Below, one piece after another: positions 5,575 through 62,975 of a DNA stretch of 64,000 bases (its first letter is position 1; each line of letters opens with the position of its first letter). The stretch comes from Raillietiella orientalis (taxonomy: Eukaryota), in the NCBI GenBank assembly GCA_036172245.1, contig JAYWIR010000012.1, positions 1,054,001-1,118,000 on the forward strand, in the 5' to 3' direction. The translations under genes were made by a program, and so were the position numbers. Below the pieces are notes generated by a model. The model was not told the origin of the DNA. It made no database searches and saw only the letters and a list, made by a program, of their open reading frames with translations.

Positions 5575-7188
5575 AGGATTGCCCCAAGTCCCACTTGCCT
5601 TGAGGTGAGTTTATCCCGTAAATTTCAAACAATAATTACAATCACACATTTCCGCAAACACTTTGTCAAATGTTTCTGCACACGAATTTTCAAAGTGTCC
5701 ATTTCTTTGCTTGCCATGCGCAGGATTCTCCTCTGTTGGGGAAGGGAGGTAACTAGGGTCTCGAGGGCAGTCCACTCGTTTGGGCAGCATCCTCCATCTT
5801 CTTCAGGATTTAACGGTAGGTCCAGGCGGATACTCTGTCGCAGCTGCTGATTCTAATTTCTCTTTGCAGCACTCTTTTGCAAATGTTGAGACTAGGCACT
5901 TCAACGTTGGTATTCCCGGATTTCGTCCGTCTTATCGCGATGCTCGTGATGGAAAGGGCCGCACAATGGGAATGCATCGAGGAACGTTTCTGCTCCCATC
6001 ATGCCTTCCTGCCAAGATCTCCATCTTTCCTTTCGTCTGCAGGCCGGTCACCGCCTTCAGCGTTGTCCAATCCTGGAGCAGCGTCGGGCAGGTGAAAACG
6101 TGGAACCGGATGTCCCTGTCTCCACACACCTTGCAGAGCTCGTCTTGGCTGCTGCTTGTCCAATGCTTCAGTGGGAGTCACTCAGGAAGCCTCCGTGGTG
6201 CTCATTCGGAAGGTCATCCCGGTGACCATGCCCGGTGGTAAATCGCTCCTCCATATCGTTGTGCCAACCGCTAGCAGGTTCTTCCGTAGCGGTTGGCAAC
6301 TTTGTCCAGTAAACCGTCTTCATTGGCTTCCTCCTTCATTTGCTCGCGGACGATGTCTGTGGCCCCACTCATTCGTCGCTTCACGTTTCCAGAGCTCGCG
6401 GGTCCTGTGGCTGAAGTTTTCGATCGTTTTCGTGATGCAGCGATGCAGGCGCATTCTGTAGCAGCTGCCACTCGTGGTGAGCTGTTCGCAGTTGCGAATC
6501 TTCCCTCCTGTCCTCTGCATCATCCGTTTCCAAGTCTCTCGAGGGGCCCTTGTGAAATAGGCAATCTCCTCCTGCCACAATTCCTTGCTTCGAGGCACTA
6601 TCTGGAAGCGGTGCCTGTCTCGTTTGCCACGTTGGGGTCCATATTCCCCCCAGTCTCCACGCTTACCTATTGAGGGTCTCTCGAGTTGTTGACCAGTTTC
6701 GAGTGGGCTTTGTGCGCCGCATGAGGCCACTGGTCCCAGTCGCTGCTGAGATGCAGGGGTTGTTGCGCGTCAACTCCGTCCACGGATTGATTGCTGCAGC
6801 GACTCCATCCCGATCCCACCTCCCTCTTGTGGTCGACATAGAACTGTCAGCCGCACCCGTGCTTTGTGCTCGCTCCAGAGGATCTTGCATCGAAGCTGTT
6901 CCATTTCCATCCTTGTTTTCTTATCCAATGAACAGAAGGTCGCTCCGAGGAGCATCTTGAGAAGGGGAGCTCCATTCGACAAGTTCGCATACGGCTCCAT
7001 GCTGAAGTCCACGCGAATGTATCGTCCGCTGTCTGGCTTTTCCTAGGATTCGTTCCTCTGGATCTGTGGAGAGAAGCATCTCTGACGTCTGATTCCTAGG
7101 TATTTAAGTTCATCCACCACTCGGCATCCCTTCTCCGTGTAGGCGGAGAGACCCAGGATTCCGATAGGCAACAGTTTCGACTTCTGGA
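5575..7188 (-). mobile_element. 5'-truncated Tx1-like LINE copy (end of RT to 3' UTR)
   Basis: The reverse complement of ~5750-7188 is near-identical to 21963-~23400 (QKSKLLPIGILG..VDELKYLGI, LCRPQEGGGIG, CKVCGDRDIRFHVFTCP). Similarity is weaker down to ~5575. Confidence 0.92.
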
Positions 7189-18392: not shown

Positions 18393-19790
18393 ATGGCTAC
18401 TCCCATGTCAACGGAGGTGTGCCAGCCGACCACCTCCTAGGAGGTAACCGCGCCAGCGTTGGTAACGATGGCGACACAGCCATCGCTGCCTTACGAGACC
18501 GTGGCAGCCTCGAATGCCGAATGCGGCAGCGGCTGCAATGGCGAAGCCGACGAAGTCCTCCATGTTTGAAATCCAGAAAACTAAGCCCGTATGGCAAATA
18601 GGCGAGGAGGTAAGGCGAATCACGTTCAGAACTGCAATGCTGAGCACGCAAACGTGTGAGATGTCACTTTATACAAGAAAAATATGGATTTTAAAGAGAT
18701 ACAAGCAATAGTACCGTCCGCAATCGGAACCATTATGTACACAGCGGACGAAGAACTGCAGGAGACCCTGGTGGAGATGCCCATCATCCTGAACGGAGAC
18801 AGCTGCGGGGATCGGAAGAACTGTCCACCACGGAGGTCTACCTGACCGGTGTCCGCCGTTTCACCAGCCAGGAAGTCGTGTGGGAGTCTTCCTCCCAGAC
18901 GGAGATGTCAAGAAGATTGTGTTCCTCAACCACATCGAGGATATCTTATCAAAGAAGGCCGTGGTGCACATCGAGCTCTTCGCCGATGCCAAAAACCCGG
19001 GAGTCGTCTCCAGCAACGAGCCCTCCCAGCACGTGCAGGTTCTACACCGCCTGCAATCCACATTGTGCACGGGTTGCAAACAGTTTGGCCATCGGCCGGG
19101 AACCTACCCGAAGGCGCAGTGCTTCAAGTGCCGCCGAATGGATCACTTTATTAAGGAGTGTACGAGAGCTTCACAGTTCCACCACTATAAAATTTCGCGG
19201 CAAGTGATGCGTGAGTACGAGAAGTGCTTCGCTTGTTTTGTATTCCAAGGGCTGGCTTCGCTGTCTGCAGTACAGGAAAAAGGAGCAGCAGGAAGTAGTG
19301 GTGCCCACCCAACGCAGGCGTTGACCTGGGATAAATGGAAGTTTTTAAGTGAAAGAAGAACTTCTACTTCGCCCAGTAGCACGACCGAGGAGGAGAAGAA
19401 GATGACCGATTATGAGCAGGAGGTGGTCATACTCGCAAAAACGGTCCCTCCGGACAACACAAAGGATGAACAGAAGGAGGCTATGTTCCGCATCTCTGCA
19501 CTTCAGAGAGAGAACCTAAACAAGCTGGTGGACGAGAAGATGCATCGCCTGCTAGCGAAGGACACTCTGAACGTGACGAAAGCCGATATCATCGAGCTGG
19601 TCTAGCAGGTCTTGTTTCCCGCAAAGACGACGACGAGGGCCGTCCGTCTAACACAGAAGGAGGAGAGCATAATGGACGACACCAGCTACTACATCAAGTC
19701 GGAGAGACAGCGACATGAGGGAGAGACGACCCTCTAAGAGGGGGCGAAGAACGTCTCCCAAAGAAAAGAGGAAGAGCAAAAACGTGGAAT
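18393..19790 (+). pseudogene. LINE ORF1 (gag-like, zinc knuckle), frameshifted
   Basis: ORF 18880-19605 contains CTGCKQFGHRPGTYPKAQCFKCRRMDHFIKEC (tandem CCHC knuckles, the first degenerate). Upstream broken frames give LVEMPIILNG and TEVYLTGV. The start is approximate. Confidence 0.8.
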
Positions 19791-19799
19791 TAAACACGC

Positions 19800-22700
19800 A
19801 TGGCCTCCTTCCTGTCGCCAGTCAGGATTCCGAAGATCGCCTTCCGGAACATCAACGACATGTGGAGCGAGGACAGGAGAAGAATCATGTGGACCATCGA
19901 GCGTGACGATATCGTGTGTCGTCAGGAAACCCACGAGACAAGGCAACAGATCTGCCTGGAACTCGAGAAGCGAATGTACTCCCAGCTGTTCCTTAGCTCG
20001 AACGGGAAGCAGACGGACTCTTGACGAGGCGATCCTCGTCAAGAACGTCATCACGCACACCCTCCTGGTATCCTTTTCCCCATGGCCTGGCTGCATCGTC
20101 GGAGTTCGGATGTCCTGGTCCGGAAACGTCCAACTGTGTCTGATGAATGTGTATGCACCGCATAGGGAGAAACATCGATGCGCGGAAGCTGTGCAGGTGT
20201 TTGCTGCGCAGCAGTTCCGCGCCTAAAGACCGCCGTCGTCGTGTGAGACCTAAACACCCCGAAACACGCAGACCAACAAGACCCACGAGCGAGATGAGGG
20301 GCGTTTTCGCAGCTGTACGATGAATTCGGACTGCAGTGGCTGACAGCCAGCCACAAGCCGATAAACCACGTTCTGTACAGCGAGGACGTAGGGAACCGCA
20401 TCCAGTGGTTTCGGCTACTTGAAACTCTGCTCTCGGATCACTAGCTGCTGCGATTCACCTTTAAGACGGACAACCTCGGAGGAAAAATGGCTCCAGGGCT
20501 GCGCTGATCGGCATGCCCTAATAGCTCTCAAGTTTCCCCACCACCAGCAACTCATCGAGGTGATTCTGTGGGACACAGAATCCACAGAGTCGACGACTGG
20601 AACCTCTGAAAGATACCATCCATATGTTTGCGAACATTCAGTACGGCGAGAGGAAATGGTGACAGGAGGCGTTTTGGGAGTTGAACATCCGAGGACACTG
20701 CCTCTCGAGGTACTGGCACTTGAATTAGAGACGGTACATCTTCCGTTCGGTGTAAGGAAAAGTTGGCGTTCTGGAGAAGAAGAAACTGGAAGCAGGCATC
20801 TTTTTCATCCAGCACGAAGACGAAATGCTCCACGAGCAAGAAGGAATCGTGAAGGCATTCCACAGGCACAGAAGCAGGATGCGACTTTCGCCCAAAGGAG
20901 GCGATCAATCTCCATCCTGCGAAGTGATTGCCGAAGACATGGGCCAACCTCTTGAGCTCAATTCTACTTAAACACCTGCAATCGGTAGAACGCGCGCACG
21001 CGCGTGCGAGTGTCACTAGGGAAGAACACGCTGGTCATTTCTCGTCTTCGCCGTCTATTGTATCTTCCAGTGTGCTGCTAGTTTCCTCCACGGTCAAGGA
21101 ACCTCTCTTAGCGGCGATGAAGCTACGGGAACTGGTGCTCGTACTCAGTCTGCTGCTTCCCGTCCCCATGGAGCGCATCTTTGACTTGAGTGTAGTCAGT
21201 TCACGACTCATCGTATCGTTCGATTCGGAGACGTCCTCCAGGTCACGCTGCGCCTTCCTGCGCAGTGCCTTCTCTCGACTGCACTCTTCCTCAGCCTCCT
21301 CGAACTGCCTCTTGATGGCCTTTATGCGGTTCCCCATCTTGTCAAGCTGCTCTTTGTTTTGCTCGGAAGGTCTGCGTTCGTCTTCCAGCTGCAGCAGCAG
21401 CTTCTTGATGAGTTTGTCCTGCTTATGGGAGTTTTTGGAGTGCATCTAGTTTTCTGTTTGTCGACCATCTCTTTGACGCAGCCATGCGAGCAGACCGGGC
21501 ACGGCACACGTGAAGAGTGTCCAACCCACCATCGGCCACAGCCGATACGTCAGGGACAACCTGGTGCTGGGTTTCACGGATATGGAGAAGGCCTTGGACA
21601 CTGTGGACCACGGAATGCTGCTGAAGATTCTGAGGAAACTGGGCTACCCAGGATACTTTGGCGAATACATCGAGATGACTATGGGGCCAACACTGAAAGA
21701 TCACAATAAACGGAAAAGATATAGACGCAATCCAGATGAAAAAGGCAATCAGTCCGTTGATGCTTGTAATCTACCTGCAGACAGTGTCGTCCCTGATCAA
21801 CAGAGGCGACCGCCTGCAAGGAATCATCATCGATGACGATAGACACATCACTTGGCTTTGCTCACGATCTTCTCTTCTTCGTGAAGGACGAGAGAGATCA
21901 ACATACGTTCCTTGGTGCAGTAGTTGAGTCCATGGGAAAAGGACTGAGCTTGAAGATCAACTTCCAGAAGTCGAAACTGTTGCCTATCGGAATCCTGGGT
22001 CTCTCCTCCTTCACGGAGAAGGGATGCCGAGTGGTGGATGAACTTAAATACCTAGGAATCAGACGTCAGAGATGCTTCTCTCCACAGATCCAGAGGAACG
22101 AATCCTAGGAAAAGCCAGACAGCGGACGATACATTCGCGTGGACTTCAGCATGGAGCCGTATGCGAACTTGTCGAATGGAGCTCCCCTTCTCAAGATGCT
22201 CCTCGGAGCGACCTTCTGTTCATTGGATAAGAAAACAAGGATGGAAATGGAACAGCTTCGATGCAAGATCCTCTGGAGCGAGCACAAAGCACGGGTGCAG
22301 CTGACAGTTCTATGTCGACCACAAGAGGGAGGTGGGATCGGGATGGAGTCGCTGCAGCAATCAATCCGTGGACGGCGTTGACGCGCAACAACCCCTGCAT
22401 CTCAGCAGCGACTGGAACCAGTGGCCTCATGCGGCGCACAAAGCCCACTCGAAACTGGTCAACAACTCGAGAGACACTCAATAGGCAAGCGTGGAGACTG
22501 GGGGGAACATGGACCCCAACGTGGCAAACGAGACAGGCACCGCTTCCAGATAGTGCCTCGAAGCAAGGAATTGTGGCAGGAGGAGATTGCCTATTTCACA
22601 AGGGCCCCTCGAGAGACTTGGAAACGGATGATGCAGAGGACAGGAGGGAAGATTCGCAACTGCGAACAGCTCACCACGAGTGGCAGCTGCTACAGAATGC

Positions 22701-23350
22701 GCCTGCATCGCTGCATCACGAAAACGATCGAAAACTTCAGCCACAGGACCCGCGAGCTCTGGAAACGTGAAGCGACGAATGAGTGGGGCCACAGACATCG
22801 TCCGCGAGCAAATGAAGGAGGAAGCCAATGAAGACGGTTTACTGGACAAAGTTGCCAACCGCTACGGAAGAACCTGCTAGCGGTTGGCACAACGATATGG
22901 AGGAGCGATTTACCACCGGGCATGGTCACCGGGATGACCTTCCGAATGAGCACCACGGAGGCTTCCTGAGCGACTCCCACTAAAGCATTGGACAAGCAGC
23001 AGCCAAGACGAGCTCTGCAAGGTGTGTGGAGACAGGGACATCCGGTTCCACGTTTTTACCTGCCCGACGCTGCTCCAGGATTGGACAACGCTGAAGGCGG
23101 TGACCGGCCTGCAGACGAAAGGAAAGATGGAGATCTTGGCAGGAAGGCATGATGGGAGCAGAAACGTTCCTCGATGCATTCCCATTGTGCGGCCCTTTCC
23201 ATCACGAGCATCGCGATAAGACGGATGAAATCCGGGAATACCAACGTTGAAGTGCCTAGTCTCAACATTTGCAAAAGAGTGCTGCAAAGAGAAATTAGAA
23301 TCAGCAGCTGCGACAGAGTATCCACCTGGACCTACCGTTAAATCCTGAAG
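19800..23350 (+). pseudogene. LINE ORF2 (APE endonuclease + reverse transcriptase + zinc-binding tail), frameshifted and interrupted
   Basis: APE: KIAFRNIND, DIVCRQETH, LMNVYAP. RT: ISIL..D.KTWANLL..L.KHL, FTDMEKALDTVDH, ISPLMLVIY, FAHDL, SLKINFQKS, KYLGI. Tail: LCRPQEGGGIG, CKVCG..HVFTCP. Confidence 0.9.
20985..21460 (-). pseudogene. zip: Captured 3' fragment of non-muscle myosin II heavy chain (end of coiled-coil rod, tailpiece, stop and ~50 nt downstream)
   Basis: ORF 21035-21445 reads KLLLQLEDERRPSEQNKEQLDKMGNRIKAIKRQFEEAEEECSREKALRRKAQRDLED..MSRELTTLKSKMR, matching the MYH9/MYH10/zipper rod end. The tailpiece SSRL..KRGS..DGED resembles Drosophila zipper. Confidence 0.9.
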
Positions 23351-23559
23351 AAGATGAATGATGCTGCCCAAACGAGTGGACTGCCCTCGAGACCCTAGTT
23401 GCCTCCATTCCCCAATAAAGGAGAATCCTGTACATGGCAAACCGCAACAATCGGTGACATCTCGTGGATGCTTACAGAAATGTGTGATTGTAGTTCTTGA
23501 AGGTGGCCAAGGAAATTCACCCCACTGCTTATGGGCTTGGGGAACTCTACTGCGCAGAC

Positions 23560-26030
23560 GGATAACGGAGACAGCAGAGAGGATGAAAGGAAAAAAAAAA
23601 CAATAAAACTACAAACACAAAAAAAAAGAGCTGAAAGAAAAACAGCATACAGAAGAAAAAAGAAGAACCCAAGGATTTCCATCGTCCTAGGCCAATAGTA
23701 ACGATCTCCTCGTGGGGGTCGCTACTGGCCTTCATTAGAAAAAAAAAAAAAAAAAACTACAAACACAAACGAAATAACTTTTAGGGGGCACGGGAGGGGA
23801 TCATGGCCTGCCGGAGGCCGTTCCCTGCATCCTGTCTGAGGATGCCATTAAGTTCCTCCTGCTGTTCTTCAGGTGAGACTATTTTGTTGTTTCTCCTCCG
23901 AAAAACGTGGATGGACGGCGAGCGAAGCTGGTGGCAGACGAGGTCAGTGGAAGCAGCAGAAAGCCGCTCATCCGCATTCTCGTTATCAGTTCCCGGAGCT
24001 GTTTGGATAACGAACCTCTGCAAAAAGACAAAGTCGTCCCACCCTCCCATCCATGTTTGAGAAAAACGCAGCTCACAGCACTTCCTTGAGAAACGACGCG
24101 ACTCTCTTGAGTGAGGCGACTTCTTTCCAAGTGGTCTTCCATTCAGAACTCCTGAGAATGCGGAGGAGGATTGAGGGACAGTGTTTCCTACTGTGCTGCC
24201 ATCTCATTCCAACGGGTTCTGGAAGCACGTGACGGTCCTTCTGGAGAGCGGAAGAAGCACATCCTAGAAAAGAAGCTGCTCGTATGCAGCCTCTTGCAGC
24301 AGCTCGGTTCCCCGGAGATTTTCGAGGCTAGCGTTCCGCTAATGACCTTCGAAGCGAAGTGCAGATGATCAGGCTGACAACGAAAATTCGAAATCTCGAG
24401 AGTCCTGTCTCTCAGGACTTCACCTTTCTCATCGAGCCCAAGCATCAGCCCAAGCATAGGCCCGGAGCGCTTCTCGGAAGACGTTACTCACGTGCAAGGC
24501 TCAAAACCGAGCCTCGACCGTATTCGCCTCGACAAATGGATTCGTTTGCGCGCATGAAGGAAACAACCCTCGAAGAACCGTCGTTGCGAGGAAGATTCTT
24601 CCCCCCCCCCCCCCCCTTCGCGAAGGAACCGCGTTGCCGACTCTTGGCCGAGCTGGGAACGGCCTCAGGGACGGAGAATGCGACCGAGAATTGATTCCAT
24701 CACTTACCTTGCGTGCCGACCGACGGCATTCAGTCTTTGGCTGCTATAATTCCCGTGAATTTCCTCGGACTTCTCTTCCGAGGACCAACACGTGGACTTT
24801 CGCTCACGTGAGGTATCCCGGCCTCAGGAGTCGATCCTCACCAGCCCATGTGAAGAAGCCCCTACGAAATCTACTCTAATTAATTTTTCGATTCTTTTTT
24901 CATCCGCCTGTTTGGACGGGAAACGCAAACACAGAGGTGTGTCTGTTTGCCTTCTCCGGCCAAACATGGATGTTCATCTCATTCCGCTTGTGGTCGAACC
25001 GGTCGCCCACCGTGATCGCTTCAGCACGAACATCCAGAAAGAGCGGAGGGACCGTATGCTTGGGTTCTCCTTGTATTACAAGGCTGTTTGGTTGCCCCCG
25101 GTGACGAGCTCTCATGCAAGCATTCTGCAGGCTGCTCGTAGCGAGTGCACGCCACCCTCCTGGCAGCCCAACAAACAAAAGGGGTCGTCGAAGGAGAAAA
25201 AGGATTCCTCGTTCGCATTCCTCTCAGCCGGCTTTTCCTCCCGCACACGCTTTCGCATCAGTGTTTTCAGAGCTGGTGATTCAAGTTAGAGCGCCCTACT
25301 TTGACCGAAACGAATGGAATCTCTAAATGGGGTTTTCCAGATTGCTGTCGCGCGAAGGGAGGCTTGTAGCAAGCCCCTGAAAAGTTTCCTCTTATTAGAA
25401 GCTCTCAGCTGCTTTTCCTTGACTTACCTGAAGACGGGAAGAAGAGGAACCGCATGTATCGAAACTCCGAGCACAAGTTGAAGTCGCGAACTCCTCCTCC
25501 TTCCCCCGATCCCCTGCCGCCATCCTTTCGCTTTCGGGAGACACGGATTCGAGAGAAACCCTTTGCTCTTTTCAGTCGATGGAAGTGACCCTACGCTATC
25601 CTCTGGAGCCGCCAAGAGATGATAATTTCCAGAATCCATGCAACTAGACCATCATAAACCGTAGAGCATTGCATCTAAAGTTCGCTAATCTTCCGCATCC
25701 CGTACCGCTTTCTGGGTGCAGCCCACGAATAGCGAGTCTCAAGAGAAATCGAATTTGGGGACCCATCCTGACACTCAAGGGTGGGCAAGTCTGCTGTTTC
25801 CAGGTAGCGTCCGCGAGACGTCGTGAAATCAGGGAAATCCGTGACGGCGGCCTCGATCTGTGGAAGGGAACAGGTCCTCCGTTATGTCCTCCGTTGTGCA
25901 GAGCGAGCCTCATCTACAGGAGCGGATTCATAAAATCTCTTCCTCAAGAGTGATCAGGTGTGCAAACCAGATGCTTCACAGTTACCGAGGAATCGACGTT
26001 GGCACCTCGCCTCTGGGAGAGTTACGCCCC
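23560..26030 (-). mobile_element. Decayed L1/Tx1-like element (RT domains 4-7 to T-rich 3' UTR), tail-to-tail with the + strand LINE
   Basis: Minus-strand remnants LSVRMGP (GVRQG-like), AED (YADD-like) and LVLGV (YLG-like). The 3' end CATGATCCCCTCCC plus a T-rich tract has the same layout as 9391-9480. Confidence 0.45.
23622..23752 (+). mobile_element. Short, 5'-truncated poly(A) retro-insertion with 17 bp target-site duplication
   Basis: AAAACTACAAACACAAA occurs at 23605-23621 and 23753-23769, flanking ~130 bp that ends in a hairpin plus a poly(A) run. Confidence 0.7.
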
Positions 26031-60300: not shown

Positions 60301-62250
60301 GGGAGATATAATCCACCCTTGATTTGAGGGAGGTATTCAAAACACGAAAAGGGAATGGGAAGAGTCGGGAGCGGGATGCCATTTCTGGAAAAATGTTCTG
60401 GGATCTCGTACTGCTTTAACACCATGTTGGAACGAGTGCCACGACAAGTAGGGGAACGCTGCTCGGTTCATTTCGAGACTCTACTCTTCCTTTTGATCCA
60501 GATACCATCCCTGAGTACCCGAACGGGCCGATCCACCGTCTGTCGAAGAGTCCACGGCCGCGGTCAGCGCTTCCGCCATCAAGAAATCCTGCCACAGGTG
60601 AAATTCTGCAAAGCGACGTGCACCTCCGCCAGTGGGGTGGCCGTTGGCTTCCGTGGAGCTCGGAATCGCGGCCGCCCTATAATCACAAGGCTTCGCATCA
60701 AGCTGGGTATTCGAAACTAGAGCCACGTCAGACGACCAGTCATACAGTCATCCTACCCACTCATCAAACATTTAACTGCAAGAGGCTGAGAAAACCTCGA
60801 GGCGAGCGCCGTCTCAAAGGAGGACGGAGGGAAAGAGCAAACCAGTTCGGAGAGCTGGGCTCTTGAAGACCCAAGAAAGGTTCTGGGGCCGAAGCTGCCT
60901 CAGTCCATTTCGTGAGAGCGCAATAAGGCTGAGGCCAATAATCGGTCGTCGAAGAAATTGGCTGGTCATTTGCAAAACGCCTCGAAGACTGCGGTCGCGG
61001 CAACACACTAGCTGTCACTTCTGCCTCCTCCTTCCTCTTCCTTTTTTCACTGATTCGTGAAAAAACTAGTTGAATTTGACGGAACCGCCGCCGCCTCTAA
61101 GACGCTGACGTGTTCTCCGTCCTCTCCCTCCAAGAAGGTCGGCTTCATTGAAATAAGGGGGTGGCAACACTGCTGGTGTGCCAGCTGGATACGTGCACTC
61201 GTTTCCAAACTGCTTTTTTGGATGCAGCTTGAGTCTGCGAGACGCAGGAATCGTCGTGTCGTCCTTGCGGAGTCGAAAGAGCTGTCCCGTGCTTTGGGGG
61301 TCGACCAATGGGATCATTTGGCAGAGATCCTGCCGCATCAGTTGCCCGAGGCAACAATGTTCAAGTAAGATTGGACCCAGTGGAAACTACAAGGAATGAT
61401 TCTGCCACCAGCTGCTTCGACCCTAGAAGCATCTCATGAGCTGGACCACGAACTCGTTGAGACATCCGAGATCCACTGCGGATGGACAACTGCTGAAGAA
61501 GAGTGCGTGGAGTGCTGTCTCCCAAGAGGGACATCGTTTTCATGATGAGGCTCAACAGGAACGAGTCCACCAGAGCTAATGAGAAGAGACACCATCCTCG
61601 TCTCCCAAGAGAGAAAAAGTTTTTCCCCCGTTGCTGCGGCAACGACGGCGCGTCATTCTGGTTCGGCGCGGGTGGCTTCATCCTTCCGAGAGCTGCATCG
61701 CGAACTCTCGGTTATTCGCACGGCTCCTCACAGGGTGGCTGAGGAGAGATCCTGAAGCATCCGAGCTATGAACTGTCCTCCGTGATGGAGTTGCTGCGTT
61801 ACCACATCCCGCGCGTCTGACGACCTGCCTCTCCGAGAATCATCCCATGCAGCCGACCAGCCGGCTGCGAAACTGTGTTGGCTGGGTTCATTCGAAGGTC
61901 ATCCCACGAGTGGATCAAATCTCATGACTTTTCGCCGCGGGAGAAACCATCATTCATGTCGGTGATGCGCGGGTGACCTTCCGAGCGCGGGCCGTGAGCG
62001 TGACGTGATTGGACGTCCCGAGGATCAAATCTGCACTTGACTTCTCGCCGCTTCGGCCGAACCACCGCCTCTCGGCCGTGGGGAAGCCAGAGATGGGGAG
62101 AGAGGCCGGAGCAGCATTCGGCACGCCAGAAGGTCTGCCACTCGCCTGCACCAAGGGTGGAGCTCTGAAGGGTCTCGTTCCACCGAACTTCAGCTTCGGG
62201 ATGAGCGATGCTGTTTCATCCGGGAAGTCTGAGTCCATCTCACGAGATCT
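57400..62250 (+). mobile_element. Long, heavily decayed L1/Tx1-like ORF2, probably with a nested minus-strand fragment at ~58.4-59.2 kb
   Basis: Ordered remnants: ATLLLLSETW (APE), APGNEG (KAPGPDG-like), FVSLSLL, PSKKVGFIEI..ASWIRAL. The nested minus piece reads LLIAGTIWKFR. Confidence 0.5.
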
Positions 62251-62344
62251 TTTTTCTTTTTATTTTTATGAAATGCTAGTAGTGACTTCTCGAAGAGATA
62301 ATCACTTTTGGACTAGGATGGTGGAAATCCTTTGGGTTTCTTCG

Positions 62345-62975
62345 GGTTTTTCTGCTTTTTGTTTTTTTTGGTTCGCCGAGTGCTGAAGGACAGTCCGTCT
62401 CCTTTGAAGGGAGCTCATGAAGCCCTCTAAGCACCGTCCACGCCATCGGAGGGTGCTTGTCAACTCTCCGAGTTAGGAGTCACCCCGGAAGGACTACCAC
62501 ATGAATCCAGTGAAGGTTTCTGAGGACAAAGTCCGTTTCTCTTACTCTTGAGAGGGAGCCGCGGAGGGAACCTCTTTCTTATGCTGCCCGGAGGAAACCC
62601 GGAAAGGATCCGCTCCTGGAATTCTTTCTCCGGAGGTTACCCGCAAGGGAGCTACTTCTTATTTCCTCTTCCTATGAAGAGCACTCCGAAGGAACGCTTC
62701 TCAATTTCTCTGAAGAGTCGCTCCCCGAAGGGAGCAGCACACTTCATGACCTCTGGAGAGATATCAATGCACCAGCTCCATGGTACGAGACGGAGGGTCC
62801 TCCACGAGGAGGGGGACGGTTCCATTTTCCCAACTAAAGGGAAACTCAGAAGGAAGCCATCTCCTCGGTTCTTTCCTCCCTCCTGGGTTCCTGAAAAAAC
62901 TCCGGAGGGTGCACTTCCGATGATGACCAGTCAACGGGGATACACGACTTCCGACTTCCACCAGCGCAGCTGCAC
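62345..62975 (-). mobile_element. SINE copy 6, lacking the tRNA head (5'-truncated)
   Basis: TTTTTTTTGGTTCGCCGAGTGCTGAAG tail end, GCTCATGAAGC..AGCACCGTCCACGCCA and ATGAATCCAG are shared with the other copies. Confidence 0.75.

Follow-up and report, generated by a model that had tools for sequence, protein, structure and literature searches.

The myosin fragment and its junctions

The window (the whole 64-kb stretch of DNA that was analysed) holds a LINE whose probable reverse transcriptase (RT) region is interrupted by a 476-nt insert, lying antisense to the surrounding element. The features of the insert and its edges are as follows.

20985..21460, minus strand: inserted fragment: the final ~141 codons for a non-muscle myosin II heavy chain, then 50 nt resembling a 3'UTR (Pfam, BLASTP, alignment)
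21035..21445, minus strand: open frame of 136 codons plus TGA (Pfam Myosin_tail_1, BLASTP, alignment)
21446..21448, minus strand: in-frame TAG directly upstream of the ATG, pairing with Leu of the nearest myosins (alignment)
20985..21034, minus strand: post-stop stretch of 50 nt, without poly(A) and without AATAAA (sequence reading)
20982..20984, no strand: left-junction TCG, forming a 3-nt direct repeat with the TCG on the right (sequence reading)
21461..21463, no strand: TCG at the right junction, second copy of the repeat (sequence reading)

The open frame spans the end of the coiled-coil tail and the non-helical tailpiece. Pfam Myosin_tail_1 matches it with an E of 1.6e-27 and 96.3 bits (cut-off 38.1), residues 3-90 corresponding to profile positions 994-1081 of 1081, i.e., the last 88. 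By BLASTP (E 2e-37, 54% identity) the whole frame aligns with a non-muscle myosin of 1980 aa over its residues 1841-1976, and this myosin match is far above chance level. The matching region is the extreme C-terminus of arthropod non-muscle myosin II. Among the best 13 protein matches eight carry an informative source name, which in all eight is "myosin heavy chain, non-muscle." Alignments to full-length myosins are collinear, and show neither an intron-sized interruption nor a frameshift across the 141 homologous codons. Over 158 codons, the myosin frame has two stops (one of them natural), against eight in each of the other two minus-strand frames.

The homology probably starts at the junction itself, five codons upstream of the ATG, giving 141 codons including one nonsense codon. 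As the TAG pairs with Leu of the nearest myosins, the alignment suggests that it is a nonsense substitution inside the captured sequence. The ATG would then be an internal Met of the myosin, with a putative role at best as a start codon. The original prediction, of an uninterrupted 136-codon tail frame followed by its stop and 50 nt with no poly(A) or intron-sized gap, is thus borne out, and the homology likely reaches further upstream, through the TAG.

A tblastn search of the 64 kb with five full-length myosins matched only 21038-21475, everything else scoring an E of at least 0.75. A complete myosin gene, with motor domain, neck and full rod, is absent from the locus, where only the fragment is present. 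This leaves a likelihood close to nil for the proposal that the sequence is a genuine last exon belonging to a minus-strand myosin gene. Such an exon should hold the C-terminus with its stop codon and then 3'UTR-like sequence, and so does the fragment, but the 42.5 kb upstream on the minus strand contain no further myosin exon, the frame is preceded by an in-frame TAG and by purine-rich bases that do not resemble an acceptor-like tract, LINE sequence adjoins both ends of the insert, and invariant residues are changed. The earlier claim of host-sequence capture, on the other hand, is upheld by the Pfam match, the collinearity with the myosin C-terminus and the lack of any other myosin in the 64 kb, and the capture of part of the host's non-muscle myosin II gene is well supported.

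The exact frame is absent from the protein collection searched. A search for longer proteins gave 30 matches among 768 candidates (best full-coverage identity 54%), and one for near proteins gave 17 among 52 (best 65%, over 67% of the query). In 5.8 billion clusters no protein was found above 65% identity at two-thirds coverage, and neither a parent nor a sister copy turned up.

At the junctions, the sequence confirms the predicted limits of the insert (20985-21460) and the TCG on both sides. The repeat could be microhomology or a minimal target duplication; taken alone it is weak evidence, with a chance of 1 in 64 for one register. The plus-strand translation reads ...SSILLKHLQS up to 20984 and continues as S-TISLTQ from 21461, and both LINE flanks are mutually in frame after 476 or 479 nt are taken out. 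No A/T run and no AATAAA were found at the junctions by reading the sequence. The identity, extent and orientation of the fragment are shown, as are the missing poly(A) and the missing long duplication. Within the 50 nt beyond the myosin stop there is a perfect 12-nt GC palindrome (20996-21007).

A chimeric assembly join that put myosin sequence into the LINE is highly improbable. The element is multi-copy and assemblers err in repeats, but a misjoin would need both an entry into and an exit from the myosin, resuming the LINE at the adjacent in-frame base. The window moreover contains no N anywhere, and with a stop codon and divergence from every known myosin the fragment does not look like part of the live gene. 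Two further origins were considered and rejected. For Helitron-type capture, the insert ends show no TC...CTRR termini or A/T target, and the myosin homology extends almost end to end. Twin priming would leave inverted or extra sequence at the 5' end of a truncated element, and here the patch sits inside collinear LINE.

The host LINE and its second copy

The element around the insert was read from the following parts.

18793..19605, plus strand: frame resembling ORF1 of the LINE, weakly matching a CCHC zinc knuckle (Pfam zf-CCHC)
20756..20984, plus strand: left LINE flank, read as the N-terminal RT part, ending ...SSILLKHLQS (translation only)
21461..22378, plus strand: right LINE flank, decayed RT from fingers/palm through thumb, in at least three frames (PDB, Pfam, Atlas)
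21963..23440, plus strand: 3' part of LINE copy A, common to copy B, with stops at 22106 and 22379
5711..7188, minus strand: LINE copy B, 5'-truncated (comparison with copy A)

On the right flank, Pfam RVT_1 stays under its cut-off (E 0.01, 16 bits against 29.6). The PDB matches, 5 of 5 and 4 of 4, are LINE-1 ORF2p or R2 reverse transcriptases and are collinear (E 0.1-1.4), and all 30 Atlas matches fall in RVT_1-bearing clusters (score 0.96). Taken together, this evidence makes a convincing case, for the right flank only, that the sequence encodes a decayed non-LTR reverse transcriptase. RT-like pieces occur in differing frames, one at 21480-21833 and another at 21797-22378, with a TAG at 22106, in agreement with the frame disruptions described for the host LINE at the outset. 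The left flank (20756-20984) gave no meaningful match in Pfam, PDB or Atlas, and neither did the middle RT piece; the left flank is presumably RT, to judge from its motifs and position. Of the originally proposed rejoined RT (...LLKHLQS/TISLTQ), the mutual frame of the flanks and the RT nature of the right one are therefore retained, whereas the tools lend no support to RT on the left.

Upstream, the zf-CCHC match in the ORF1-like frame also lies under its cut-off (E 0.0035, 17.8 bits against 20.8). Two stretches upstream of the RT, 19741-20226 and 19797-20021, considered for an APE-type endonuclease, gave no Pfam or PDB match; some strings there, read by eye, look like its motifs.

Copy B is identical to copy A at 1457 of 1478 positions, with 21 differences (98.6%, or 1.4% apart) and no indels. 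The two have their 3' part in common and unrelated 5' flanks, the pattern of a dispersed, 5'-truncated LINE, and copy B ends short of the insertion site. The stops in the 3' 1.5 kb of the LINE are common to both copies. Because these stops are found in both without an indel, the damage was inherited from a source element and provides no clock for copy A; the near-identical broken copy B indicates that already-broken elements of this LINE family were copied recently. Target site duplications (TSDs) around the LINE were not found, there being no common k-mer of at least 9 nt for copy A or at least 8 nt for copy B between presumed element ends that are themselves uncertain.

Relatives of the LINE are scarce in the collections searched. 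A word-based protein search for an intact relative with 21477-21833 gave no match among 68 candidates, and two exact 23-mers of the LINE gave no match each against metagenome contigs. Scanning 1.84 billion representatives with HMMER (query 21797-22378) yielded two weak matches, P0049 and P0050. The former, a repeat protein with other domains, is probably spurious; the latter has an RVT_1 match below threshold only.

Decay of the captured sequence

At positions invariant in 12 arthropod-like myosins, the fragment is changed at 6 of 37, compared with 0-2 of 37-39 for each real myosin. These changes are non-conservative (R to N, R to H, E to K, N to G, L to I, and R to S), and a Pro occurs inside the coiled coil where two aligned myosins have His. 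Identity between the fragment and the 12 myosins is 46-63%, compared with 57-94% among the 12 themselves, and in the tree the terminal branch of the fragment measures 0.87 against a median of 0.25. The in-frame TAG, the changed invariant residues and the long branch together point firmly to relaxed constraint, as far as the sequence can tell.

The remaining frame may have stayed open because little time has elapsed and the sequence is short. In simulated neutral decay of 136 codons, the frame stays free of new stops with a probability of 0.91 when divergence is 0.7%, of 0.51 when it is 5% and of 0.36 when it is 7.5%; with an indel to substitution ratio of 1:10, it escapes indels with a probability of 0.13 at 5% divergence and of 0.05 at 7.5%. 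As a rough estimate from the six changed positions of 37, the fragment may be ~6% diverged. At that divergence and with that indel ratio an intact frame would be uncommon, and constraint or a divergent parent thus retains some plausibility. The original prediction had held the insert to be either younger than the decay of the LINE or constrained. This dilemma is unnecessary, since the homology reaches upstream across a TAG, invariant positions are changed, open frames are common in the simulation, and the stops of the LINE are shared with copy B.

A functional insert, whether kept as a short protein with the myosin tail or supplying antisense or small RNA against the myosin gene through transcription of the LINE strand, would find encouragement in the scarcity of stops in the myosin frame relative to the other two minus-strand frames, in the 141 codons without a frameshift, and in the antisense orientation relative to the LINE. 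Against it stand the in-frame TAG at the 5' end, the non-conservative changes at invariant positions, the Pro in the coiled coil, and the expectation that a frame stays open by chance at modest age, and such a role appears very unlikely. It would likewise be a long shot that the antisense tail is a heritable part of a still-copied LINE subfamily with a broken ORF2, whose sense transcripts could act as antisense RNA or as piRNA/siRNA precursors against the host's myosin II. The insert looks like an ordinary, slowly decaying repair patch or pseudogene fragment and not a working gene.

Origin of the insert

The preferred reading, with a probability of roughly 0.5, is class-2-type end joining: a cDNA patch from spliced myosin mRNA sealed a double-strand break in the LINE, and non-functional drift followed. 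The donor would have been DNA copied from the 3' end of a spliced non-muscle myosin II mRNA of the host, a short stretch comprising ~141 codons and 50 nt of 3'UTR. A double-strand break inside the RT-coding region of a LINE copy would then have been sealed by end joining with this patch, whose orientation is random in such repair and happens to be antisense here. The join would have used an overlap of 0-3 nt (TCG), with little or no loss of LINE sequence and no addition of poly(A). Afterwards the patch would have drifted as non-functional DNA, acquiring one nonsense codon and several changes at invariant residues.

This reading has close counterparts. Class-2 templated sequence insertions (TSIs) are described in PMC5110952 as having no TSD of at least 5 bp, no poly(A) and end-joining features, with a reverse-transcribed RNA serving as the patch; TSIs were described in human cells and populations. 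Capture of fragments at double-strand breaks is also described for numts and in yeast (PMC2567098 and PMC1976456). Like class-2 TSIs, filler DNA and cDNA patches, the insert consists of a few hundred bases from a distant transcribed gene. By the criteria of PMC5110952 it also resembles them in carrying no poly(A), no end poly(A) signal and no TSD of at least 5 bp, and its junction overlap is at most a few bases and its orientation arbitrary. Unlike the human TSIs, it lies inside a LINE of an arthropod-like genome, and its end-joining signatures and RNA origin would here be deduced from sequence. With a processed pseudogene or class-1 TSIP the fragment shares being an intron-free, decaying copy of the 3' part of an mRNA; it differs in having neither a poly(A) tail nor a TSD of at least 5 bp and in stopping 50 nt past the stop codon.

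A spliced RNA donor is suggested by comparison with 11 short proteins predicted from genomic or transcript contigs of related taxa, whose boundaries are borrowed and are not the host's. P0037, from a related taxon, has a 25-residue insertion directly before ALKRQ, and five of the 11 (P0043-P0047) start at this same point after unrelated residues. Homology is lost directly after KRGSV(Q) in nine of the 11 (P0032-34, P0037, and P0043-47). The fragment crosses both points of discontinuity uninterrupted to its DGEDEK end, as do P0031 and P0035, which are homologous to their end. Since it spans two intron-like boundaries of other taxa, we infer a spliced origin, albeit indirectly, as lineages vary in where their introns lie. 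A genomic DNA donor would be equally possible if all 141 codons lay in the last exon of the host gene.

In that case, a genomic terminal myosin exon would have been copied at a break or stalled fork, by synthesis-dependent or microhomology-mediated template switching and with no RNA intermediate. The missing poly(A), the 3-nt overlap and the arbitrary orientation fit DNA as well as RNA, and the GC palindrome close to one end could mark where synthesis stalled or switched template. However, the fragment crosses the two intron-like discontinuities of the related taxa, an indirect counter-argument, and a DNA donor is considered improbable.

The original prediction had left the mechanism between templated break repair and RT template switching. 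Break repair is favored; template switching fits less well, because the insert is antisense and internal, LINE sequence of one orientation flanks it in frame to the left and right, and neither poly(A) nor a long target duplication or TSD is present. Acquisition by RT during retrotransposition would involve two template jumps, or a second-strand jump onto myosin mRNA that would account for the antisense orientation, and would make the insert a heritable feature of a LINE subfamily, possibly copied in trans. Double template jumps by a LINE RT are described in PMC2104539, and the 5'-truncated copy B, with the same stops and no indel, indicates that broken elements have recently been copied. The fragment, with its six changed invariant positions, also looks more diverged, and thus older, than the 1.4% separating copies A and B, which hints that the insert may predate the copying of the LINE and may then be a subfamily feature and not a one-off repair.

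However, first-strand switching onto an mRNA would place it in sense and not antisense, and resuming at the very next LINE nucleotide after a 476-nt detour is unlikely. In the LINE template-switch chimeras described in a preprint (bioRxiv 10.1101/2025.02.02.635956), the foreign RNA occupies the 5' end of a truncated LINE and mostly has the sense orientation, and the unit has a 3' tail and is bounded by TSDs. The insert resembles such chimeric retrocopies (U6/L1, mRNA/L1) in that a segment derived from a cellular RNA is joined to a LINE. It differs from the U6/L1 type in being internal and antisense, with the LINE in frame on both sides, and in that no TSD was found around the LINE copies. Nor was a second insert-bearing copy seen in the window, where copy B ends short of the site. 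Acquisition by RT is accordingly judged unlikely.

Significance

If the end-joined cDNA patch is the true reading, the locus would be a further natural example of a break repaired with part of a highly expressed mRNA, found this time in an arthropod-like genome. It would serve as an anecdote on how gene fragments enter repeats, and as a warning to annotators, as the 136-codon frame would be labelled a "myosin-like" gene. The insert would carry greater weight only if it were common to many LINE copies or gave rise to small RNAs directed at the myosin gene. Were the antisense reading of the LINE true, the locus would represent a transposon carrying bait against an essential host gene, or a host that tunes that gene via the element.

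The Myosin Fragment

The insert carries the 3' end of a non-muscle myosin II gene, antisense within a LINE. The features read from the sequence are:

20982-20984 and 21461-21463, TCG direct repeat, one unit on each side of the insert
20985-21460 (476 nt), insert, myosin on the minus strand
21445 down to 21038, minus strand, myosin ORF of 136 codons, with a TGA stop at 21037-21035
21446-21448, minus strand, in-frame TAG upstream of the ORF

As originally noted, the two TCGs enclose a 136-codon myosin tail ORF with its stop and a further 50 nt, and these 50 nt contain neither an A-run nor an AATAAA, confirming that the insert lacks poly(A). The ORF matches Pfam Myosin_tail_1 (E 1.6e-27, 96.3 bits, cut-off 38.1) across the final 88 positions of the 1081-position profile. 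Its residues 2-135 align with 1841-1976 in a non-muscle myosin II of 1980 aa (54% identity, E 2e-37). On the minus strand of the insert, the myosin frame contains two stops, one of them natural, and the remaining two frames contain eight each. These matches and stop counts confirm the observation and lie far outside what chance would give. The 50 nt past the stop also contain a perfect GC palindrome of 12 nt (20996-21007), set in CG-rich sequence 12 nt in from the insert's left end; it may mark a point at which the polymerase that made the patch paused or broke off.

Alignment to full-length P0010, a database myosin, extends the homology 5' of the ATG. The five codons from the junction to the ATG read Q-T-E-N-stop and match weakly (2/6 residues); the TAG stands opposite a Leu, and the ATG aligns with an internal Met of P0010. 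That Met is also the start of several short predicted proteins on unrelated contigs, which begin there because the gene caller requires an ATG. The TAG opposite Leu, the ATG opposite an internal Met and the upstream homology together suggest a fragment in which about 141 codons are homologous, one of them a nonsense codon, rather than a gene-like ORF that begins at a start codon of its own. A tblastn search with five full-length myosins hit no other myosin exon in the 64-kb window (all other hits at E 0.75 or more), so the insert is not part of a resident myosin gene, and it is very unlikely to be the terminal exon of a minus-strand gene.

The Host LINE

The surroundings are laid out like a non-LTR retrotransposon, with uneven support from the tools. 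For 21480-21833, all four PDB matches are to R2 reverse transcriptase (E 0.22) or LINE-1 ORF2p (E 1.4). All five for 21797-22378, queried with one TAG translated as X, are to LINE-1 ORF2p (E 0.1-0.52, residues 700-873); the same segment reaches Pfam RVT_1 at E 0.01 and 16 bits, under the cut-off of 29.6. In the ESM Atlas, 21797-22105 falls in RVT_1-bearing clusters (30/30 matches, score 0.96). Upstream, an ORF1-like frame shows a sub-threshold zinc knuckle (E 0.0035), and an endonuclease-like region has no match in any library searched. Protein searches returned no intact relative of the LINE, and two exact 23-mers taken from it had no match in metagenome contigs.

The proposed placement of the insert within the RT domain holds in part: the right flank is RT-like and the two flanks are mutually in frame after removal of the insert, but the left flank has no match in library searches. 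The placement is suggested by the right flank, by the extrapolated PDB alignment of 21480-21833, in which only a few residues would separate the junction from the aligned motif downstream, and by our own reading of the left-flank translation, which terminates in ...SSILLKHLQS. The frameshifts ascribed to the LINE are substantiated, since the two RT pieces overlap by coordinates in different frames, proving at least one, and stops at 22106 and 22379 break the frame of 21797-22378.

On the plus strand, a Leu/Ser-rich open frame of 173 codons (20928-21449) crosses the left junction between LINE and insert, mirroring the coiled-coil codons; it most plausibly reflects sequence composition rather than encoding a fusion protein. 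Downstream of the LINE lie A-rich low-complexity tracts (23590-23760) in which a stretch of 32 nt is repeated (23590-23621 and 23738-23769); they match 62250-62369 on the opposite strand at 74% and may belong to another repeat.

Part of the LINE holding the insert (copy A, 21963-23440) recurs on the opposite strand at 5711-7188 (copy B). The two differ at 21 of 1478 positions, 15 of these by transitions and 8 in CpG context, and no indel separates them. The 5' flanks of the copies are unrelated, as expected of a 5'-truncated LINE copy. With no indel over this 1.5 kb, both copies have the same frame relations and share the two stops at 22106 and 22379. Being common to A and B, this damage to the 3' 1.5 kb was already present in their source and does not record decay that took place here. 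Recent copying, perhaps in trans, seems to have involved members of the family that were already broken. Near the 3' end (23440-23500 versus 5630-5710, minus) the copies diverge over a short variable segment, with about 37 nt against 58 nt, then again share about 20 nt, followed by weaker similarity further downstream. Copy B ends short of the insertion site and is uninformative on the insert in other copies. As a possible alternative to break repair, the insert may have been gained during second-strand synthesis and then have spread as a LINE subfamily.

The Donor

Eleven short predicted proteins are related to the fragment. One has a 25-residue insertion right before ALKRQ, five start at ALKRQ after unrelated residues, and in nine the homology stops directly past KRGSV(Q). 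Such breaks are typical of places where a gene caller has read across exon boundaries. The fragment is uninterrupted at both (21320/21319 and 21092/21091) and terminates in DGEDEK, like the two proteins homologous up to their end. Its passage through both boundaries points indirectly to a spliced RNA donor, provided that the host gene has those introns; alternatively, a large terminal exon may have been copied from DNA. The protein collections yielded no close relative of the fragment. In P0016, a database protein of 286 aa from outside the window, the myosin tail follows what looks like that coiled coil translated from its antisense strand; this is probably an artefact of fold-back or an inverted duplication in another organism.

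Constraint and Age

The coiled-coil part was compared with 12 arthropod-like full-length myosins picked from the database matches of the ORF, with near-duplicates excluded and one fish, one tardigrade and one nematode myosin retained as outgroups. Identity is 57-94% among the 12 and 46-63% between these and the fragment. The fragment is changed, mostly non-conservatively, at 6 of the 37 positions invariant in the 12, against 0-2 of 37-39 for each real myosin in a leave-one-out control. A maximum-likelihood tree places it, weakly supported (84/55 and 86/82, none of the branches starred), beside two branchiopod sequences, on a terminal branch of 0.87 (median 0.25; nearest neighbour 0.009). This looks like relaxed constraint, with a divergent parent from an unsampled lineage as a possible alternative source of the divergence.

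Single substitutions create a stop in 49 of 1224 cases, and the share of neutral-substitution simulations in which the ORF gains no new stop is 91% for a divergence of 0.7%, 51% for 5% and 36% for 7.5%. On our own reading, the RT/ORF2 region would contain at least seven frame changes in about 3 kb, roughly one per 430 nt, which would put the chance of zero frameshifts in 423 nt near 0.4. Given these rates, an insert left intact within a riddled LINE is not a statistically compelling contrast. The proposal that the insert is younger than the decay of the LINE, or constrained, is not borne out: the LINE stops were inherited, invariant positions have changed and open frames are common in simulation. 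Since the fragment's divergence of about 6% (a rough value with wide error, from the invariant positions) exceeds the 1.4% between copies A and B, these rough age signals would slightly favour a patch older than the latest round of LINE copying.

Origin of the Insert

The insert is genuine, a piece captured from the 3' end of non-muscle myosin II. It forms an internal antisense patch, with the LINE in frame on both sides, a repeat of only 3 nt and neither poly(A) nor a long target duplication. It does not fit a processed pseudogene, because both tail and target-site duplication (TSD) are absent. Of the two routes first suggested, break repair fits better than RT template switching. In structure the insert agrees with class-2 templated sequence insertions, described as reverse-transcribed patches at double-strand breaks with end-joining features and without TSD or poly(A) (PMC5110952). 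LINE template-switch chimeras are described as truncated LINEs with TSDs whose 5' end carries the foreign RNA, usually in sense, antisense cases being ascribed to twin priming (bioRxiv 10.1101/2025.02.02.635956); the insert, by contrast, is internal, antisense and without a long target duplication.

Most likely, then, a double-strand break in the LINE would have been sealed by end joining with a cDNA patch of the myosin mRNA 3' end, and the patch would since have been drifting as a pseudogene. A functional antisense role, though conceivable, is unsupported, and the insert represents a new example of an already known type of event.
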